61,259 nucleotides of DNA from Bryobacteraceae bacterium. Its GTDB lineage: Bacteria > Acidobacteriota > Terriglobia > Bryobacterales > Bryobacteraceae. The notes below the pieces were generated by a model that saw only the letters and a list, made by a program, of their open reading frames with translations, did not search any database and was not told the origin of the DNA. Location of the stretch: contig DATMXS010000269.1 in NCBI GenBank assembly GCA_035561355.1, forward strand, positions 1-61,259. Reading direction: 5' to 3'. Positions 14,790-61,138 of this stretch are shown piece after piece; the stretch's first letter is position 1; each line of letters begins with the position of its first letter. Position numbers and translations under genes: made by a program.

Positions 14790-15938
14790 ATGTTTAAGGG
14801 CTTTCAGAAACCCAAGCGACTGGTTGCCAACACGGAATCGCTCACGGAACGCTACGGGCAGTTCACGGCGCAGCCGTTCGAGCGGGGCTTCGGCACAACT
14901 ATCGGCAACAGCCTACGGCGCGTGCTGCTGAGCTCAATCGAGGGCGCGGCAATAACGGCCGTGCGGATCGAAGGCGTTGCGCACGAGTTCAGCCCGATAC
15001 CGGGCGTGGTCGAGGACGCCACCGATATCATCCTCAACCTCAAGCAGATCCCGTTCAAAATGAGCGGCGAGGGCGTTCGAACCGTGCGTCTGCGGGTCGA
15101 TTCCCCCGGCGAGGTCCTCAGCAGCCAGATCGAAACGGACCACGACGTCGAAGTGCTGGATCGCACCATGCACATCGCGAGCGTCAGCGACGGCAAACTC
15201 GATATCGAGATGCGCCTGAAGCTGGGCCGCGGTTACGTGAGTGCCGACCGCAACTTCGACGAGGATCTGCCAATCGGCTACATCCCGATCGATTCCGTGC
15301 ACTCGCCTGTCCGCAAGGTCAACTTCGCGGTTGAGAGCGCACGCCTCGGCCAGATGACCGACTACGACAAGCTCACGCTGGACGTCTGGACCAATGGCGC
15401 GATCTCTCCGCAGGACGCCGTCGGCCAAGCGGCCAAGCTGATCAAGGACCACACCTCGATCTTTATCAACTTCGAGGAGTTACCCGAGATCGCCGAGGAG
15501 CCGGCTGAGCGCGGCCTGGACCAGATGAACGAGGTCCTGGACCGTTCGGTGGACGAGCTCGAACTGAGCGTTCGTTCCTACAACTGCCTCAAGAACGCCA
15601 ACATCCAGAGCATCCGCGACCTGGTGCAGAAGACCGAGGCCGAGATGCTCCGCACGAAAAACTTCGGGCGCAAGTCCCTCAACGAGATCAAGGAAATTCT
15701 TGGCGGGATGGGCTTGCAGTTCGGCATGAAGTTCGACGCTCAGGGACGGCTCGTCACCGGAACGGGCCAGCCCGTTACGCCGACCGCGCCGACAGGTGAG
15801 CGCGAGCGGTCGTACGACGAGGATGACGACGAAGAGGCCGACGAGGATGAGGACGAGGACGAGGACGCCGCGGCTGATACAACCGGCGAAGGCGAACTCG
15901 ACCACGAAAAGGAACACTACGAGAGTTTGAGCGAATAG
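14790..15938 (+). CDS. rpoA: DNA-directed RNA polymerase subunit alpha with an acidic Asp/Glu-rich C-terminal tail
   Basis: 382 aa. The alpha NTD and CTD ([21 protein letters not shown]) are recognisable. Tail reads [21 protein letters not shown]. Confidence 0.95.
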
Positions 15939-50917: not shown

Positions 50918-51364
50918 ATGTCCCGAACCGTCGCTCCTGAAATCGACTCCCGCTATGCATGTTTCCGCATGGAGGTCCGCAGCTCGCGGATCCATCGCTG
51001 GGGCGTATTCGCGCTCGAACGGATTCCCGCCCGCCGCAAGGTGATCGAGTACACCGGCGAGAAGATCAGCCGCAAGGAGACCAAGCGCCGCGGCGAGGGC
51101 GCACTGATCTACCTCTTTGAGCTGAACCCATATTGGTGCATCGACGGCTCCGTGGGCGGCAGCGGCGCGGAGCTCATCAATCACAGTTGCGAGCCGAACC
51201 TTCGAGCGATCGTCCTCAAGAACCACATTCTCTACTACGCCAAGCGCGACATCGAGCCCGGCGAAGAGCTGACGATCGACTACCATTTCGAAAAGAAAAT
51301 GGAGAGAGTCGAGTGCCAATGCGGAGCCGGGAAGTGCCGCGGCACGATCAACCTGAAAGAGTAG
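50918..51364 (+). CDS. SET-domain protein (putative protein-lysine methyltransferase)
   Basis: The NHSCEPN, ELTIDY and post-SET CQCGAGKCRG motifs are all present. 148 aa. Confidence 0.85.
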   Translation: MSRTVAPEIDSRYACFRMEVRSSRIHRWGVFALERIPARRKVIEYTGEKISRKETKRRGEGALIYLFELNPYWCIDGSVGGSGAELINHSCEPNLRAIVLKNHILYYAKRDIEPGEELTIDYHFEKKMERVECQCGAGKCRGTINLKE

Positions 51365-55124: not shown

Positions 55125-56255
55125 CTATTCGAGTCTCAGTTCCGCCCAACCCGGCAGGGCCGCTGGCTCGCCATTGAGGAACACGATCCGGCGGGTCTTC
55201 GGGAACGGCAGGCCGGACTCGATAGCGCGTGTGAAGAACGGGATGTTCCGAAGCACCTGACGCTGTGCTTCGCTATCCGTCTCCAGCCAGCCTGTTTTCG
55301 CCAGGAGCCCGCTGCCCCAGCCCATCGACACGATGCAGCCGGCGCCGCGTACGGCCTCGAGGCGTGCGGATACTTCATCCAGGCTGCGCCGTAGCACAGC
55401 CAATCCCGCCTGCTCCGCATAGCGCTGATGGATCGCGATCAGACGGGCCGCGTACGCGTTCGCTGCTTCAAAGATGCTCGCCGAGTTCACTGGTCCGCGC
55501 CATCGCAGCGCGCGCACCACCTCGGGATTCGCGAGGAATGCGTTCTCCTTCCAAGCTCCTTCGAACACCGTTCCCGGCGCGGCCATTTCGGCGAACATCG
55601 GAGTGCCATCCTCGGCTCGCTGCACGGTGCCTTTGGGCGCCTGCTTCCAGCCGAGGTCGAAACGCCCGCCGCCGCGCGGGACGAGTGCAGACGTGCGCAG
55701 CAGGTAGAGGCGCATCGTGTCGTTGGCGCGCGGGCCGGAGTCGCCGACTTTGATCGCACGCATCACACTGGCGCCGCCAGTGCCGAGCGCGTTGTCCTCT
55801 GCAGCCTCACCGGAACGGCTGGATGGGCGCTCGCTCTGAACCTCGACGTGCGGCGGGGAGTCGCTCCAGCGCGCGAACAGCATGCCGGTTCGAAGCGCGC
55901 CTTTGAGGGCGCTGCCGGGCAGATACGGTCCCCCGGTGGCACTGGCGAAGGTCGGGATCGAGAGCGTTTCACCTCGCGCCTGCTCCCAGGCCTTGGCAAT
56001 GGACGGGTGCTCGAAGCTGACGCGCCGGTCGGCGTAATTCTGCGCGAAGCCGCCCCATGAAGCGAAATCAAGCTTTTCGGCCTTACGGATCTGTACGAGA
56101 TAGCCGTCGAGGCGCGGCCCTTTCGAGAGCAGCTTGAAGATGCGCTTCTGGTCCAGGACGTTCACCTGGTCCTTCCACACCATGTAATCGATCGGCGAGA
56201 GTTTGTTGCCATCGCCGACCAGCACGGGAGTCAGACAGGTCAGCCGATATCTCAT
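55125..56255 (-). CDS. csm5: type III CRISPR-associated RAMP protein Csm5 (Cas7 group)
   Basis: Internal start MRYRLTCLTPVLVGDG. G-rich loop GGPYLPGSALKGALRTG. C-terminal SMGWGSGLLAKTGW motif. 4-nt overlap with csm4. Upstream part of ORF 55125..56504 rejected. Confidence 0.8.
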   Translation of the reverse strand: MRYRLTCLTPVLVGDGNKLSPIDYMVWKDQVNVLDQKRIFKLLSKGPRLDGYLVQIRKAEKLDFASWGGFAQNYADRRVSFEHPSIAKAWEQARGETLSIPTFASATGGPYLPGSALKGALRTGMLFARWSDSPPHVEVQSERPSSRSGEAAEDNALGTGGASVMRAIKVGDSGPRANDTMRLYLLRTSALVPRGGGRFDLGWKQAPKGTVQRAEDGTPMFAEMAAPGTVFEGAWKENAFLANPEVVRALRWRGPVNSASIFEAANAYAARLIAIHQRYAEQAGLAVLRRSLDEVSARLEAVRGAGCIVSMGWGSGLLAKTGWLETDSEAQRQVLRNIPFFTRAIESGLPFPKTRRIVFLNGEPAALPGWAELRLE

Positions 56256-57307
56256 AGGACGTTGCCTGCCGCGCGCTCCGGCGCGCGGAGCGGTATGGGG
56301 ATGGCGACGGCAAAGCCGGCGCGATAAACTGGGTGCGGGAAGCCTTCGGGCGCAACGTCCCGCGCGGAGCCGCGCGGATCGCGAGCCGCCGCCAGCACCG
56401 ACCCTTCCTCCACCATCCGGACGAGTTTTTTCGAGTCGCCCGAGCCCGCCGGTGATTCCACGCGGCCTCCGCGGGTAACCAGAGAATAACCGCCGCGCCG
56501 CCAATCGACTGCATCTTCGGGAGACGGGTTGAACAGGGAAAGCAGCCAGTAGGCCGTCTCGACGGGCTCTTCCCCGTTGACGGCCTTTGGCTGTGAGGAA
56601 CCGAGAATCAAGCCAGGCAAATCGCCCTCAAGGAACTCCGGCTCATCGGAGCGGCCCCATCCGAGCGAACGCTCTCCCCCAAGGCCAGTATCGGCCAGCA
56701 GACGGAGCGCGCCCTGGACCGGCTTCGACCACTCGTCGCGGGCTGCCTCGTCCGAGAACCGCACCACGGCCCATAACCCCGAGTACGGTGCGAACTCCAG
56801 GCAGGCGGTGCGGTGTATCTCGATGGCGCCTGTCCTGATGCGATCCACCGCGGCGTGCGAACGCGTCACCGTCCGGAACGGACCGGAATGAAAATGGGCG
56901 TCTTCCGGCAGCAGGCAGCCGCTGGGGCCGTCCACATACCAGGAGTCCTCACTCAGGCTGCGGCCTGCGACCAAATCCTGGGCCGCGGCGAGCGGCACGA
57001 ACCGGGCGTTGCTCCATCGCACTTTCGGTGATGCGGGCGGTGGCCACATCGTGCGCGGCGGAGGCACGAAATGGGTCTCTTCGATGTAGGGAAAGCACGA
57101 ACTGAGCGCAACGCACGGGCCTTCGGGATGGCGGACGGTCGCATCGAGCCATTGTTCGAGCCGGCCCAGCCGCAGCATGGCGGTGGAGAGCGCAGAGAAC
57201 AGGGCGTCGCTGTGAAAGACGCGATCGACGCGGTCGCGCGCGCCCGCATGCAGCCCGATGCGCCACGGCCCGAGCGGACGGAACCGTACCACGAAGGCGG
57301 GATTCAT
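56252..57307 (-). CDS. csm4: type III CRISPR-associated RAMP protein Csm4 (Cas5 group)
   Basis: N-terminus FRPLGPWRIG...VFHSDALFSAL. G-rich loop GLGGERSLGWGRS. Confidence 0.8.
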   Translation of the reverse strand: MNPAFVVRFRPLGPWRIGLHAGARDRVDRVFHSDALFSALSTAMLRLGRLEQWLDATVRHPEGPCVALSSCFPYIEETHFVPPPRTMWPPPASPKVRWSNARFVPLAAAQDLVAGRSLSEDSWYVDGPSGCLLPEDAHFHSGPFRTVTRSHAAVDRIRTGAIEIHRTACLEFAPYSGLWAVVRFSDEAARDEWSKPVQGALRLLADTGLGGERSLGWGRSDEPEFLEGDLPGLILGSSQPKAVNGEEPVETAYWLLSLFNPSPEDAVDWRRGGYSLVTRGGRVESPAGSGDSKKLVRMVEEGSVLAAARDPRGSARDVAPEGFPHPVYRAGFAVAIPIPLRAPERAAGNVL

Positions 57308-57310
57308 TGC

Positions 57311-58144
57311 TTACGCTTCGAGACGGCCGCGGATCTCGTTGAGTGCCGTGCGCAACGCGGCAGTATCCGCCCCGGTCAGCAATTCGGCCTCACCGCCCTG
57401 GCCCGAGTAATAGTTGCGGTCGCGCCACATGACGTTCAGGTTAGCGAATCGAACGCGGCCGCTTCCGCGCGAACCGCCGCCGCCCAGCGCATCGTCTTCG
57501 AGTAACGAGAGCCCTTCCACGACTAGGGGCAGCAGGTCCTTGTCGGCATCGCACAGGATGTCCAGAACGAACCGCACGCGGAAGCGCGCGCCGGCCGGGA
57601 CCCGCTCCAGCGTCCGCGGATTGGCCTGCGATGTGATGCGGTCGATCGCGTTCTCGCTCTTCACCTCAGTGAGCTCGTCATCGAGGTTCTCGCGCATCTG
57701 CGGAGTGATGCTTTCGGCTACCAGGGGCGCGTCGTACACGGCGAGGCGCGCTGGCGTGGAGTGCGATGTTTCGAGCGGCTCACCGCCGCCCACGCGTTCC
57801 ATCCGCCCGGGATTGCGGCCGAACAGCAGGCAGACCTCGTCGTCCGGACGGTCGCTCTGGTGAATACGGACCTCCTGGCCCTTGCGGCGCGAGAGGTAAA
57901 CGAGTTCGCCGGTCACCGTCGCGCCGAGGCTCTGCTCCACAAGAGAGCGCAGCTTCCCGCGCAAGGAGCTTCCGGGCACGTAGGGCCGGCCGAAAGCATC
58001 CTTCACTACGGGATTGTCGGCGCCCCCGATTTCGAGCGAGCCTTTCCCCGCGCCGATGTGCAGCCCGGTCTCGCAAATCAGCTCTCCATCCAGGATGAGC
58101 TTCCCGATGAGTTTCAGTTCGGTGTCGGCAGTGTGCGCGCTCAT
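57311..58144 (-). CDS. csm3: type III CRISPR-associated RAMP protein Csm3 (Cas7 backbone subunit, catalytic Asp retained)
   Basis: GLHIGAGKGSLEIGGADNPVVKD with the Asp of the RNA-cleavage site. G-rich loop GRPYVPGSSLRGKLRSL. Confidence 0.85.
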   Translation of the reverse strand: MSAHTADTELKLIGKLILDGELICETGLHIGAGKGSLEIGGADNPVVKDAFGRPYVPGSSLRGKLRSLVEQSLGATVTGELVYLSRRKGQEVRIHQSDRPDDEVCLLFGRNPGRMERVGGGEPLETSHSTPARLAVYDAPLVAESITPQMRENLDDELTEVKSENAIDRITSQANPRTLERVPAGARFRVRFVLDILCDADKDLLPLVVEGLSLLEDDALGGGGSRGSGRVRFANLNVMWRDRNYYSGQGGEAELLTGADTAALRTALNEIRGRLEA

Positions 58145-58147
58145 GAG

Positions 58148-58621
58148 TTACTCGTTGTAGGCGACGATAGCCTCGAATAGGTCGCGGAACCGCTCGTAGC
58201 CGCGAAGGTCATTCTTTCTGGTTACCTGGAGCAGTAACTTCTCGAGAGCATCCAGGCTGCGGAGTTGGTGCCGCGCAATCGTATAGGCAAGCCGGGCCCG
58301 CAGCATGACGAACTGGTGCTGGCGATCGGCTTCGGGCGCGAGGCAGGCGCGCCGAACCGCATTGTAGAAGCGGCGAAGCTGGCTTTTGGTGCCGGAGTCC
58401 ATGTCGCGCATCCGGCTCACCACACTGTGCGCCTGGTTGTCCAGGTACAGCGGGTCGGTGATCAGCTTCTCGAGTTCGATTTCAGGCGGACCTTCGGGAC
58501 GCCGGTCCCCTCCGCGGAAACCACCCTCGCGCGGCGGACCTCCGTAGCTGCGCCCTTCGGCTCTGCCTTCGCGGCCCTGCCCGGGCGGCCGCCCTTCGCG
58601 TCTATTCTGCACATCCGCCAT
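58148..58621 (-). CDS. csm2: type III small subunit Csm2 (Cas11) with an Arg/Gly-rich N-terminal extension
   Basis: Helical core ...KSQLRRFYNAVRRA...VMLRARLAYTIARH. N-terminal ~50 aa reads RREGRPPGQGREGRAEGRSYGGPPREGGFRGGDRRPEGPPE. The start could alternatively be Met 58654. Confidence 0.7.
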   Translation of the reverse strand: MADVQNRREGRPPGQGREGRAEGRSYGGPPREGGFRGGDRRPEGPPEIELEKLITDPLYLDNQAHSVVSRMRDMDSGTKSQLRRFYNAVRRACLAPEADRQHQFVMLRARLAYTIARHQLRSLDALEKLLLQVTRKNDLRGYERFRDLFEAIVAYNE

Positions 58622-58626
58622 GATGT

Positions 58627-60072
58627 TCAGACCTCGGTAGAAAGTCTCGCCCATTCAAGGGCCACCAGCCCTGCGGGCCGGAGTTTTACTTGTGCAGCCC
58701 CCCGGCTCATCATCTCACTCGCCAGATGCGCGCGGAGCTTCTGCACTTCGCGCTCGCGCGCGCCGGTTACGATCCGGTTCAAACGCTGAGTAAACCGCCA
58801 CGGCCGCTGAATCCGTTGCTCTGCACCGTGTGCCGACCATAGCGACGCACCCTTTCGATACAGAGCGCCGAGTTCGGCCAGAAAATGCGGCGCCGCGCCG
58901 GCTTCGGCCGACATGCGCGAGAGCGTATCTTTGAGGTCGGCCGCGTCGGCCAGGCGCCGCCACTCCAGCACGCGACCGAACAGCGCCATGCAGTCCTTGT
59001 CGGTGTTTTTCGCCTGATCGAGTTGCCGCCCCGCCTCGGTATGAATGCCCGCCAGGGTAGAACTGGCATCAGGCGCGAGCGCGACCGCCATTGTGATCGT
59101 CTTGCCCTCGGCCCCGGGGAAGTCCTTCAACATCTCCTCTGTGAACCGATGGAAAACCCGCTGCATCTCGCGGGCGAACGGGATCAGCGCATCCCATGAG
59201 CCGTAGACCGCGAAGTCATCGCCTCCGGAATAGAGGACGCTCACTTTCCGCCAGAACTCGGGCTGCGAACAAAGCACGCTGAGTTCACCGGCGAACAACT
59301 GTTTATAGACGACCGACAGCCGGACGTGATCCTCAATTGTGTGGACGCGGCGGATGCGGACCCGCATGCTGTCCACATCGCCTCTCAAAACTCCCCACGT
59401 CTTACGGCCTTGCGCCCGGGCCGCGAGTTCTTCGAGGGTTGCGGGGGCTGTGCCGTTGCGCCCGGGCGCGGCGTGCCGGGCGAGCGGGATCGCATCTTCG
59501 CCACGGTCCGGCAGCAGACTCCAGGTGTACTTGCCGCCGCCAATCGCAATGTGGGCGGGCCGTTCGGGCGACCATCCGGCTGTTTCGGTCTGCCATAGCG
59601 CGCCGGCGAGTTCGCGGAAGTAACCGTCGTTAGGCGAGGAGGAGGCAGGTGGCTCGAAGGGCACGAAGTCCACGGCTTCGGGCGCCGCGGCCAGCTTGCG
59701 CTGCATCTCTTCCCCGAGCCGCCGGCGGACCACGGACCAATCACCGAGGTTTTCCGTGATGGCCCAGACCAGCCTGAGCAGCCCGCCGCTCATGGCGTCG
59801 ATTTCCCCGCCGGCCCTGAGCAAAAATTCGTCCGCGGCCTCGCGCGATTCGCCCGGGAGCACCAGCAGGAACTGGCCTCCGCCGCTCGATCCAAGCAGTA
59901 CGCGGGCGAGGCGGAATTCCGCCAGGAGCGCGCGCGGCAGCGCCTCGCTCAACAGCATTACCCAATGGGAACGGCCGATCAGGGCGGATGTCGAATCACC
60001 CGTGGCGGGACAGGCGAGGAGGAGATCTTCTATACCCAGCAGCTTGCCGTACAGAAGGATCTGAACAGACAT
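58627..60072 (-). CDS. cas10: Cas10/Csm1 large subunit, minimal 481-aa form lacking the HD domain and zinc finger, with an intact GGDD cyclase palm
   Basis: WGVLRGDVDSM (D-x-D metal site) and VSVLYSGGDDFAVYGSWDALIPFA (the GGDD...GxWD Palm2 signature of Cas10). A degenerate Palm1 remnant (LLGSSGGGQFLLVLPGE) and a C-terminal helical D4-like region. No His/Asp HD motifs and no CxxC pairs. Confidence 0.75.
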   Translation of the reverse strand: MSVQILLYGKLLGIEDLLLACPATGDSTSALIGRSHWVMLLSEALPRALLAEFRLARVLLGSSGGGQFLLVLPGESREAADEFLLRAGGEIDAMSGGLLRLVWAITENLGDWSVVRRRLGEEMQRKLAAAPEAVDFVPFEPPASSSPNDGYFRELAGALWQTETAGWSPERPAHIAIGGGKYTWSLLPDRGEDAIPLARHAAPGRNGTAPATLEELAARAQGRKTWGVLRGDVDSMRVRIRRVHTIEDHVRLSVVYKQLFAGELSVLCSQPEFWRKVSVLYSGGDDFAVYGSWDALIPFAREMQRVFHRFTEEMLKDFPGAEGKTITMAVALAPDASSTLAGIHTEAGRQLDQAKNTDKDCMALFGRVLEWRRLADAADLKDTLSRMSAEAGAAPHFLAELGALYRKGASLWSAHGAEQRIQRPWRFTQRLNRIVTGAREREVQKLRAHLASEMMSRGAAQVKLRPAGLVALEWARLSTEV

Positions 60073-60234
60073 GGAAGGTCTACTCTAACACAGCAAGGGG
60101 AGATCGAAGCGCTCGAACTGAAGACCAGCGCCGGTGCGCACTGCTCGCCGGAGTCATACCGGCCGCGGGCGGTTTCGCCAGCGAAATGGTGACCGCCGTG
60201 TCATTCGGCACCGGCGAGCGGCGCATAATGAATC

Positions 60235-60478
60235 GTGATGACGCGAATCTGGCGAGAGAAGCTCGGCCGTCGCGATGACGCCGATCGGGATTTCGACATC
60301 GACTTCTGGCAGCAACTGGGGCCCGCCAGGATCGTCGAGGCAGCCTGGGATCTTGTGGTCACGGCGGCCTCCGCAAAGGGCATCGATGAAAGCCAACTCC
60401 GACTTCAGAGATCTGTTGAAAAGCTTAAACGCATTCGACGTCCGGTATCTGGTCATCGGCGTACGCGGTGATGACTGA
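60235..60478 (+). pseudogene. frameshifted fragment resembling the N-terminus of a nucleotidyltransferase/DUF6036-type protein
   Basis: Two overlapping reading frames. One reads SDFRDLLKSLNAFDVRYLVIGVRGDD, then stops. No intact ORF of normal length. Confidence 0.25.
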
Positions 60479-60521
60479 CCGGCGATTACTCTCTCATTTG
60501 CCGGCGCGTTTTGGGGTGGTC

Positions 60522-61138
60522 CTATCGGGCGGCAGAACGATGAAACATCATCGAGCCGTTCATGCTCTGCGCGTGAAGATCGGTGGAGATAACGCCCGGC
60601 CAGAAGCCTGCGGTGACAGCCGGCGCCGCGTTGCGAAACACGAAGCTGCCGCCGCCGTGGCCCACATCGAACTTTACACCGCGGTCACGAGCGGTCTTAA
60701 GATATGCGTATAAGTGACCCTGTTTGTCGACCCAGGGCACCGACGCGCGGTAACAGTGTGTCGAGATGTCTCCGGGGCGCAGTCGTTCCGTAACAAGCTG
60801 CCAGTAAGGACGTCGTACTGCTGCGCCGATGCAGACACTGCAAGGAGAAACATTGCAAGACCTTTCATCCTCAGGACTCCGAAATGACGGTGCAGGGGCA
60901 CGTGAGTACAAGCTGTCGCTCGCGCGGCTGTGTGTTTGGAACGCTGCATGCATGCACATTGCGTACCGTACCGGGCTGAGCTCCTAAGCGCATGTAACAA
61001 AGGTGTAATAGATAACAGCATCCTGATCCATGCCTTTGATCGCCCACATAGAGATTTTTGGAGGAATGCGCCAGCTTCTTTGATAGAATAGACAGCAACC
61101 CAACTCGGGAAAAGAGGGATGTAACGAAAAGATGGCAA
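60522..61138 (-). pseudogene. disrupted secreted hydrolase-like gene (signal peptide in one frame, amidohydrolase-like fragment in another)
   Basis: Frame A reads MKGLAMFLLAVSASAQQYDVLTGS... (signal peptide), stopping at 60674. Frame B reads ...GVKFDVGHGGGSFVF...VISTDLHAQ and continues to 60522. Confidence 0.25.

Follow-up and report, generated by a model that had tools for sequence, protein, structure and literature searches.

A compact Cas10 without HD domain and zinc finger heads a stand-alone III-A-like csm cassette in Bryobacterales

We analysed a 61,259-nucleotide stretch of contig DATMXS010000269.1 from a Bryobacteraceae bacterium, referred to here as the window, and found that the open reading frame (ORF) at 58627-60072 on the minus strand is a Cas10, as judged by its fold, its motifs and its operon. 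The encoded protein is a compact form of Cas10/Csm1 of 481 amino acids (aa) from which the HD domain and the zinc finger have been lost together with some 40-60 linker residues, and that keeps Palm1, Palm2 as well as D4, its C-terminal domain. With a probability of about 0.55, we read this protein as the large subunit of a III-A-like (Csm) effector complex that is streamlined and lineage-specific to Bryobacterales, a reading that leaves the identity of its signal product open. The compact cassette is a testable lead and not a demonstrated new mechanism.

The assignment to Cas10 is based on several comparisons. The Pfam family Cas10-Cmr2_palm2 (PF22335) matched residues 227-363 with E=1.5e-15 over profile positions 3-133 of 133, a weak match to Csm1_B was found at residues 29-77, and in a sequence search of the Protein Data Bank (PDB) residues 5-84 aligned to the Palm1 start of solved Csm1 (chain residues ~234-347) and residues 219-376 to its Palm2. 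The NCBIfam model for Csm1, TIGR02578, scored 142.6 bits with its best stretch limited to profile positions 490-750 of 753, and the protein hence stays below the equivalog cutoff of 170 bits, which applies to the whole-protein score. An exact-sequence look-up of the window Cas10 gave no match, and its relatives P0007, P0043 and P0120 stood in for it. The AlphaFold2 model built on 65 family sequences had a mean predicted local distance difference test (pLDDT) score of 84.4 and a predicted template modelling (pTM) score of 0.85, and its best PDB matches by Foldseek were the Csm1 subunits of the E. italicus, L. lactis, S. thermophilus and T. onnurineus complexes, with E values of 1e-18 to 1e-13 and query TM scores of 0.64-0.77. 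Together, the model, the Foldseek matches, the Pfam palm2 domain and the Palm1 alignment describe the Cas10 fold of two palm domains followed by a helical D4.

According to the alignment to Csm1 and the predicted secondary structure, the protein begins directly at Palm1 (aa 1-128; 59689-60072, minus strand, as for all parts of the cassette), which is followed by a shortened linker (aa 129-212; 59437-59688) with a small beta unit at aa 164-185, by Palm2 (aa 213-370; 58963-59436) and by the helical, Cas11-like D4 (aa 371-481; 58630-58962), for which the model shows helices at 371-479 and the Csm1 profile aligns through position 750 of 753. The D-x-D, YSGGDD and GSWD motifs named in an initial annotation of the sequence are all present as described, with the metal-binding motif D232-V-D234 at 59371-59379 and GGDD, read directly from the sequence, at residues 283-286 (59215-59226); DxD and GGDD are kept across the family. 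Only three cysteines occur in the protein and none of the 65 aligned family members has a CxxC pair, so the treble-clef zinc finger is missing. The span from the conserved Palm1 tryptophan W112 to D232, the interval that holds the CxxC...CxxC finger in canonical proteins, measures 119-124 aa in the compact family vs 140-184 aa in 13 canonical Csm1 representatives, and the same representatives carry 208-274 additional N-terminal residues that form the HD domain. The initial proposal of a genuine minimal Cas10 with an intact GGDD Palm2 is therefore well founded, and so is its corollary that this Cas10 does not cleave single-stranded DNA, because the HD nuclease domain is missing. At the other end of the protein, the relatives P0004 (509-510 aa) and P0053 (501 aa) have an extra basic, Gly/Arg/Lys-rich C-terminus of about 27 aa beyond the conserved ...EWARLSTE end.

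Given its length, the gene could be suspected of being a remnant of a full-length csm1 that lost its HD domain by deletion or frameshift in the source genome, and the ORF fragments without family assignment upstream of it (60154-61138) would suggest such local decay. However, the N-terminus (MSVQILL.GK.LGIE) and the length are alike in all 65 aligned relatives, an in-frame TAG is located five codons upstream of the cas10 ATG, and the upstream ORFs of the window have no Pfam HD match. When tblastn was run with the first 270 aa from each of 13 canonical Csm1 proteins, no HD remnant was detected in the window or in 93 related loci, the matches being restricted to the Palm1 start inside cas10; although only 1.2 kb of the window lie upstream of the gene, this side is represented in related loci. 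An upstream HD-domain ORF or frameshift, which the initial annotation had singled out as the sign of a broken gene, is thus not there. Among 5.8 billion proteins searched, over 120 clusters of 473-510 aa matched with 58-90% identity, labelled Bryobacteraceae or Acidobacteriota where named, and 399 species-representative genomes, nearly all of them metagenome-assembled genomes of Bryobacterales, encode a relative of the compact Cas10; complete or near-complete Bryobacterales chromosomes with the cassette are OY970385.1, OY969810.1, CAWJDO010000002.1 and CAWEAQ010000002.1. When 50%-identity representatives were searched exhaustively with a profile, the full-length short forms scored 327-691 bits and the nearest canonical Csm1 proteins (729-800 aa) at most 157 bits, a gap that clearly separates the short-form clade from canonical Csm1. 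The median ratio of nonsynonymous to synonymous substitution rates (dN/dS) of cas10 is 0.09 over 40 pairs, and the compact gene is under strong purifying selection. One subclade has a flanking PPIase gene in common, and there Cas10 identity amounts to 76-98% vs 37-78% for the PPIase, the two being correlated (rho 0.58). In view of the conserved short clusters, their presence in 399 species genomes, the missing HD remnants, the low dN/dS and an intact operon, we rule out a pseudogene or truncation, which we regard as highly improbable for this locus.

The region upstream of cas10 deserves a separate remark. Between 60154 and 61138, both strands contain only short overlapping ORFs without Pfam matches, some of which, by eye, look like pieces of a nucleotidyltransferase/antitoxin pair and of an amidohydrolase, and the fragments suggest that a decayed variable region borders the cassette.

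Mapping of the active site by alignment to solved and canonical Csm1 proteins suggests that the two palm domains have had different fates. In Palm2, the residues that bind the two metals and the ATP under attack are kept: D232 is invariant among the 65 aligned members, D234, Y281 and K355 occur in 90% or more of them, and the GGDD aspartates are intact in 63. In Palm1, the nucleotide-site motif reads K10-L-L12-G-I-E15 (60028-60045, minus strand) in place of the canonical D-x-S-G-I-Q, with roles assigned from published work (PMC11734703, PMC13294483), according to which the residues at the replaced positions contact the triphosphate, Mg and base of the second ATP in solved Csm complexes. In E. 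italicus Csm1, the triphosphate and ribose of the second ATP are bound by D256, S258, K382 and K385, its base by Q261 and S280, and Y307 stacks on the other adenine (PMC11734703); D253, S255 and K379 are the L. lactis equivalents (PMC13294483). At the corresponding positions of the compact family, the Asp is replaced by K10, the Ser by L12, the Gln by an E15 that is invariant, the first helix Lys by Met or Leu at 123 and the stacking aromatic by S62, and the second basic residue (R125/K126) and the serine equivalent to S280 (S35) are retained. In contrast, D, S/T/A, Q and K occupy the first four Palm1 positions in each of the 13 canonical Csm1 representatives, and the compact family as a whole lacks the canonical Palm1 ATP site.

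As such, the initial prediction that the complex still makes cyclic oligoadenylate (cOA) stands only in part. The alignment to Cas10 structures that it had called for supports a conserved set of ATP-binding residues in Palm2, but the acceptor site in Palm1 is changed (K10, L12, E15, S62 and M123 in the window protein), and canonical cOA synthesis is not assured because the residues for the second ATP are replaced family-wide. The product is uncertain also because the replaced positions are those that distinguish cOA from S-adenosylmethionine-AMP (SAM-AMP) synthases: the D253 and K379 positions differ in Cas10 proteins that make SAM-AMP (E8/Q186 or D70/E151), and substitutions at the first and fourth Palm1 positions turn Cas10 into a SAM-AMP synthase in other systems (PMC13294483). 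Judging from these alignments, the compact Cas10 could bind its acceptor substrate in another way or could use another molecule as acceptor. Assignment as a SAM-AMP synthase was considered and rejected, as the residues are K10/M123 and neither E8/Q186 nor D70/E151, and no CorA, NrN or lyase neighbour recurs.

The compact cas10 is the first gene of a five-gene operon with the order cas10-csm2-csm3-csm4-csm5, in which the downstream genes are separated by gaps of 3 nt or joined by overlapping stop and start codons. The ORF of csm2 (cas11) spans 58148-58654 and matches Pfam Csm2_III-A with 6.7e-11; its likely start is at 58621 (157 aa), and its homologues begin 4-5 nt after the cas10 stop. It is followed by csm3 (cas7) at 57311-58144 (TIGR02582, 200.9 bits vs a cutoff of 90), csm4 (cas5) at 56252-57307 (TIGR01903, 138 bits vs a cutoff of 55, with a Pfam Csm4_C match) and csm5 at 55125-56255 (TIGR01899, 75.7 bits vs a cutoff of 38.3, the match starting at aa 87), all on the minus strand. 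Translation of csm5 probably begins at the ATG at 56255 that overlaps the csm4 stop (ATGA), the listed ORF of 459 aa being over-extended; the homologues measure 378-383 aa. All four partners of cas10 exceed their NCBIfam cutoffs. A III-A (Csm) effector module of cas10 and csm2-csm5 in one operon is therefore present, and the related loci L001-L004 share its order. The catalytic Asp of Csm3 lies in the loop IGGADNPV, and within the consensus IGG(S/A)DNPV it is kept in 46 of 46 homologues that are at least 73% identical to one another, so that, at the level of the motif, Csm3 is predicted to cleave target RNA.

Csm2 has an unusual feature in its disordered N-terminal tail, which is rich in Arg, Gly and Pro and is found in the window (58480-58654, minus strand) and in 73 related loci. 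With a median of 56 aa and a combined R, G and P content of 62%, this tail precedes the conserved PEIELEKL core and resembles a predicted RGG-type RNA-binding tail, which is not usual for Csm2.

The cassette also appears to bring its own promoter. A TGTGnTAnAnT motif resembling an extended -10 element (here TGTGTTAGAGT, 60082-60092, minus strand) was found in 47 of 63 loci at 3-50 nt (median 28) before the cas10 start, when the 80 nt upstream of the start were searched; the background is 0.003 per 80 nt, and the motif occurs regardless of the upstream gene. A scan upstream of cas10 for the sigma-70 consensus promoter, which needs a -35 element, gave no match. We infer that the motif probably serves as an extended -10 promoter and moves together with the cassette. 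As only about 9 nt separate the motif from the ATG in the window, the cas10 mRNA may be nearly leaderless. Apart from this motif, upstream conservation is limited to the neighbouring BON gene in one subclade. No guide-RNA-like element was found beside the cassette, and the sequence downstream of csm5 is not conserved.

Beyond these five genes, the cassette stands alone. The 55 kb of the window on the csm5 side encode housekeeping functions, among them an S41 peptidase, TonB, malate dehydrogenase, phosphate acetyltransferase, inositol-phosphate synthase, SecY, adenylate kinase and ribosomal proteins. PADLOC detected no cas, CARF, SAVED or Csm6 gene among the 62 other ORFs of the window, and no CRISPR array or known RNA was found in the window by Tandem Repeats Finder (TRF), Rfam or a dedicated array scanner. 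The latter, which detects a synthetic array of five repeats, likewise found no CRISPR-like array in 1.47 Mb from the 93 related loci at two seed settings; 43 of these loci have both 10-kb flanks. Clustering of the flanking ORFs showed that csm2-5 are the only universal neighbours, that 22 loci have a PPIase and a BON-domain gene in addition, and that no cas6, cas1/2 or effector cluster recurs within the ~10-kb flanks. Thus neither the window nor the related loci contain a complete III-A locus with an adjacent array, cas6 and, as is usual, cas1/cas2, or a linked cOA sensor such as Csm6, Csx1 or another CARF/SAVED protein, and the observation of the initial annotation that no cOA effector is encoded nearby also extends to the flanks of the relatives. 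In three relatives with Pfam annotation, the cassette is situated between LexA and DapD, between SodA and FtsK, and between BON/PPIase and RRF/EF-Ts, the last being L004. No compact Cas10 relatives were found on IMG/VR viral contigs.

Nine loci of a distant, P0152-like short-form clade from mat and freshwater metagenomes are also stand-alone. In this clade, a gene for an AAA_22 ATPase of 302 aa directly follows csm5 in L086 (15190-16095) and L087 (15268-16176) and is absent in L092. This ATPase gene may be an accessory gene or a coincidence.

Based on these data, we propose that cas10 and csm2-csm5 form one transcript that starts at the conserved promoter-like element of cas10, and that the resulting complex would be loaded with CRISPR RNAs (crRNAs) made by CRISPR arrays and a Cas6 at other sites in the genome. 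Such supply in trans has a precedent, as in most type III systems Cas6 is recruited in trans (PMC12669027). The complex would then bind complementary transcripts and cut them through the conserved Csm3 Asp, and target binding would cause Palm2, by means of D232, D234, GGDD and K355, to transfer a nucleotide, probably AMP from ATP, to a substrate held by Palm1. The diffusible signal produced in this way might act on an unlinked effector, a scenario for which 133 cyclase-positive, HD-negative loci without effectors, enriched in genomes with other type III loci, provide a parallel (Hoikkala et al. 2024, PMC11229360). Degradation of single-stranded DNA by this Cas10 can have no part in the response, as there is no HD domain. 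The second substrate and the product are perhaps not those of canonical cOA synthesis, because the Palm1 pocket is rebuilt family-wide.

Several points weigh against this proposal. No crRNA source, Cas6 or sensor/effector was found in the loci examined, and the steps in trans are purely inferred. Defence genes are not typically found in core-genome contexts with conservation this strong and seemingly vertical. Three of the four Palm1 residues that contact the triphosphate in E. italicus Csm1, as well as the stacking aromatic, are changed in the alignment, and signal synthesis might hence be abolished or different. The AlphaFold2 model is based on a shallow alignment of sequences with at least 58% identity. 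Finally, distant short relatives lack the GGDD motif, with GLGE in P0142 and GIEG in P0143, from which it follows that the Cas10 scaffold can persist without catalysis or cyclase activity in some lineages. These two proteins are also without the first Palm2 Asp and yet are full length.

The most conservative version of the proposal is that the HD-less Csm complex makes cyclic tri- to hexa-adenylate (cA3-cA6) from two ATPs and thereby activates a CARF or SAVED effector elsewhere; we count this strictly canonical version within the 0.55 given above and, taken by itself, consider it possible although rather unlikely. It is favoured by the intact catalytic residues of Palm2, by the retention of Y281, S35 and the second basic residue of the helix (R125/K126), by the chance that K10 might stand in for the lost helix Lys in phosphate binding, and by known effector-less, cyclase-positive loci that are thought to signal between loci (PMC11229360). 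However, the main, Bryobacterales-type family has the exchanges D to K, S to L, Q to E, K to M/L and aromatic to S in fixed form, D, S/T/A, Q and K are retained in 13 of 13 canonical Csm1 proteins, exchanges at the first and the fourth position make Cas10 produce SAM-AMP elsewhere (PMC13294483), and no CARF or SAVED gene is linked to the cassette in any of the 93 loci.

A more radical explanation is that the cassette has been domesticated as a CRISPR-independent module for RNA-guided control or surveillance of host transcripts, working with a non-CRISPR guide or with no adaptive guide supply. The carriage of the cassette by 399 species genomes of one order, its housekeeping surroundings (the ribosomal protein/SecY region in the window and RRF/EF-Ts in L004), its own conserved promoter-like motif, a dN/dS of 0.09 with cas10 more conserved than a neighbouring housekeeping gene, the RG-rich tail gained by Csm2, and the finding of neither arrays, cas6 and cas1/2 within 10 kb in any locus examined nor relatives on viral contigs would all fit this view. 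On the other hand, type III modules are often array-less and borrow arrays (PMC12669027), the contexts vary between subclades as expected of a mobile defence cassette, and no candidate guide RNA gene was seen, with intergenic gaps down to 70-125 bp and no conservation of the sequence after csm5. We therefore regard domestication as improbable, and the streamlined effector complex remains our preferred reading. Here we speculate, as a tentative extension with the odds against it, that the Bryobacterales 'Csm-lite' might be a distinct, undescribed III-A variant, which would either use its rebuilt Palm1 pocket to join AMP to a non-canonical acceptor, yielding a new signalling molecule for a non-CARF sensor encoded elsewhere, or act as an array-independent, domesticated and vertically inherited RNA-guided regulator.

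The window has some further features. A SET-domain protein of 148 aa (Pfam SET, 2e-24) is encoded at 50918-51364 on the plus strand between the malate dehydrogenase and ceramidase-like genes, PADLOC reported matches to 'mad2' (3.7e-22) and PDC-M71B (6.4e-14) among the other ORFs, and TRF found an imperfect GAC/GAG-type tandem repeat with a period of 6-24 at 15814-15867, presumably coding for an Asp/Glu tract.

The distinctive aspect of the system is the combination of a Cas10 of less than 500 aa without a zinc finger, a rebuilt Palm1, a stand-alone cassette, and breadth together with conservation within one order. In contrast, the loss of the HD domain in III-A and the single csm3 are already known or standard. 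The initial view that an HD-less Cas10 in a III-A gene order is unusual was overstated, as only 65% of III-A Cas10 proteins have a recognisable HD domain and 35% are without one (PMC11229360), and the single csm3, which it had counted as part of that pairing, is the normal III-A arrangement. The compact family, with its 473-510 aa and about 400 species, demonstrates that a Cas10 of less than 500 aa can be intact, abundant and under strong purifying selection, and as a natural minimal Cas10 composed of Palm1, a short linker, Palm2 and D4, it helps to define the dispensability of the HD domain, the zinc finger and the linker. In addition, the remodelled pocket and the lack of a linked effector represent a lead to a new pair of type III second messenger and effector or, alternatively, to a role of a Csm complex outside defence in a phylum that is dominant in soil.

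In full-text literature searches on short or truncated Cas10 and on Cas10 in Bryobacter or Solibacter, we found no description of this family, and we compared it with characterised systems. With the canonical III-A Csm1 proteins of S. thermophilus, L. lactis, E. italicus, T. onnurineus and S. epidermidis (~730-800 aa), it shares the Palm1/Palm2/D4 fold with Foldseek query TM scores of 0.70-0.77, the DxD and GGDD motifs with the catalytic Lys, the csm1-csm5 order and the Csm3 Asp. It differs from them in lacking the HD domain (208-274 aa) and the zinc finger, in a linker that is ~40-60 aa shorter, in a Palm1 with K-L-L-G-I-E, M and S, in its score below the equivalog cutoff, and in the lack of a linked csm6, cas6 or CRISPR array. 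The HD-less SAM-AMP Cas10 proteins, namely B. fragilis III-B Cmr2 and the III-D2 Cas10 with its order of Palm1, linker, Palm2 and C-terminal domain, likewise begin at Palm1 and have an active-type Palm2 motif and substituted D253/K379 equivalents (PMC13294483), whereas the compact family has K10 and M/L123 at these positions and no linked CorA, NrN or SAM-lyase gene. The subunit composition also differs, being III-A-like with separate csm2-5 genes in the compact family and III-B or fused III-D2 in the SAM-AMP systems.

A further parallel is found in the 133 effector-less, cyclase-positive, HD-negative loci, for which signalling to effectors elsewhere was proposed (PMC11229360), although the compact cassette is additionally without a local array and cas6 and has a remodelled Palm1. 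The survey that described those loci left out Cas10 proteins of less than 500 aa, presumed to be non-functional, as well as incomplete genomes (PMC11229360), and because of these two exclusions the compact family lies largely outside its scope. Among the other subtypes, III-C, III-F, III-G, III-H as well as III-I were excluded, since their Palm2 motif is inactivated or lost and GGDD is intact here, and III-A2 was excluded since it has no Cas11 and csm2 is present here. The missing adaptation module of the compact cassette agrees with the reductive trend described for type III variants, which includes the array-less III-G with crRNAs presumably supplied in trans (PMC12669027). However, III-G and III-H combine an apparently active HD domain with the loss of the catalytic Asp of Cas7 (PMC12669027), and the compact family is the opposite on these counts as well as in its intact GGDD, as it has given up the HD domain and kept the catalytic Asp.

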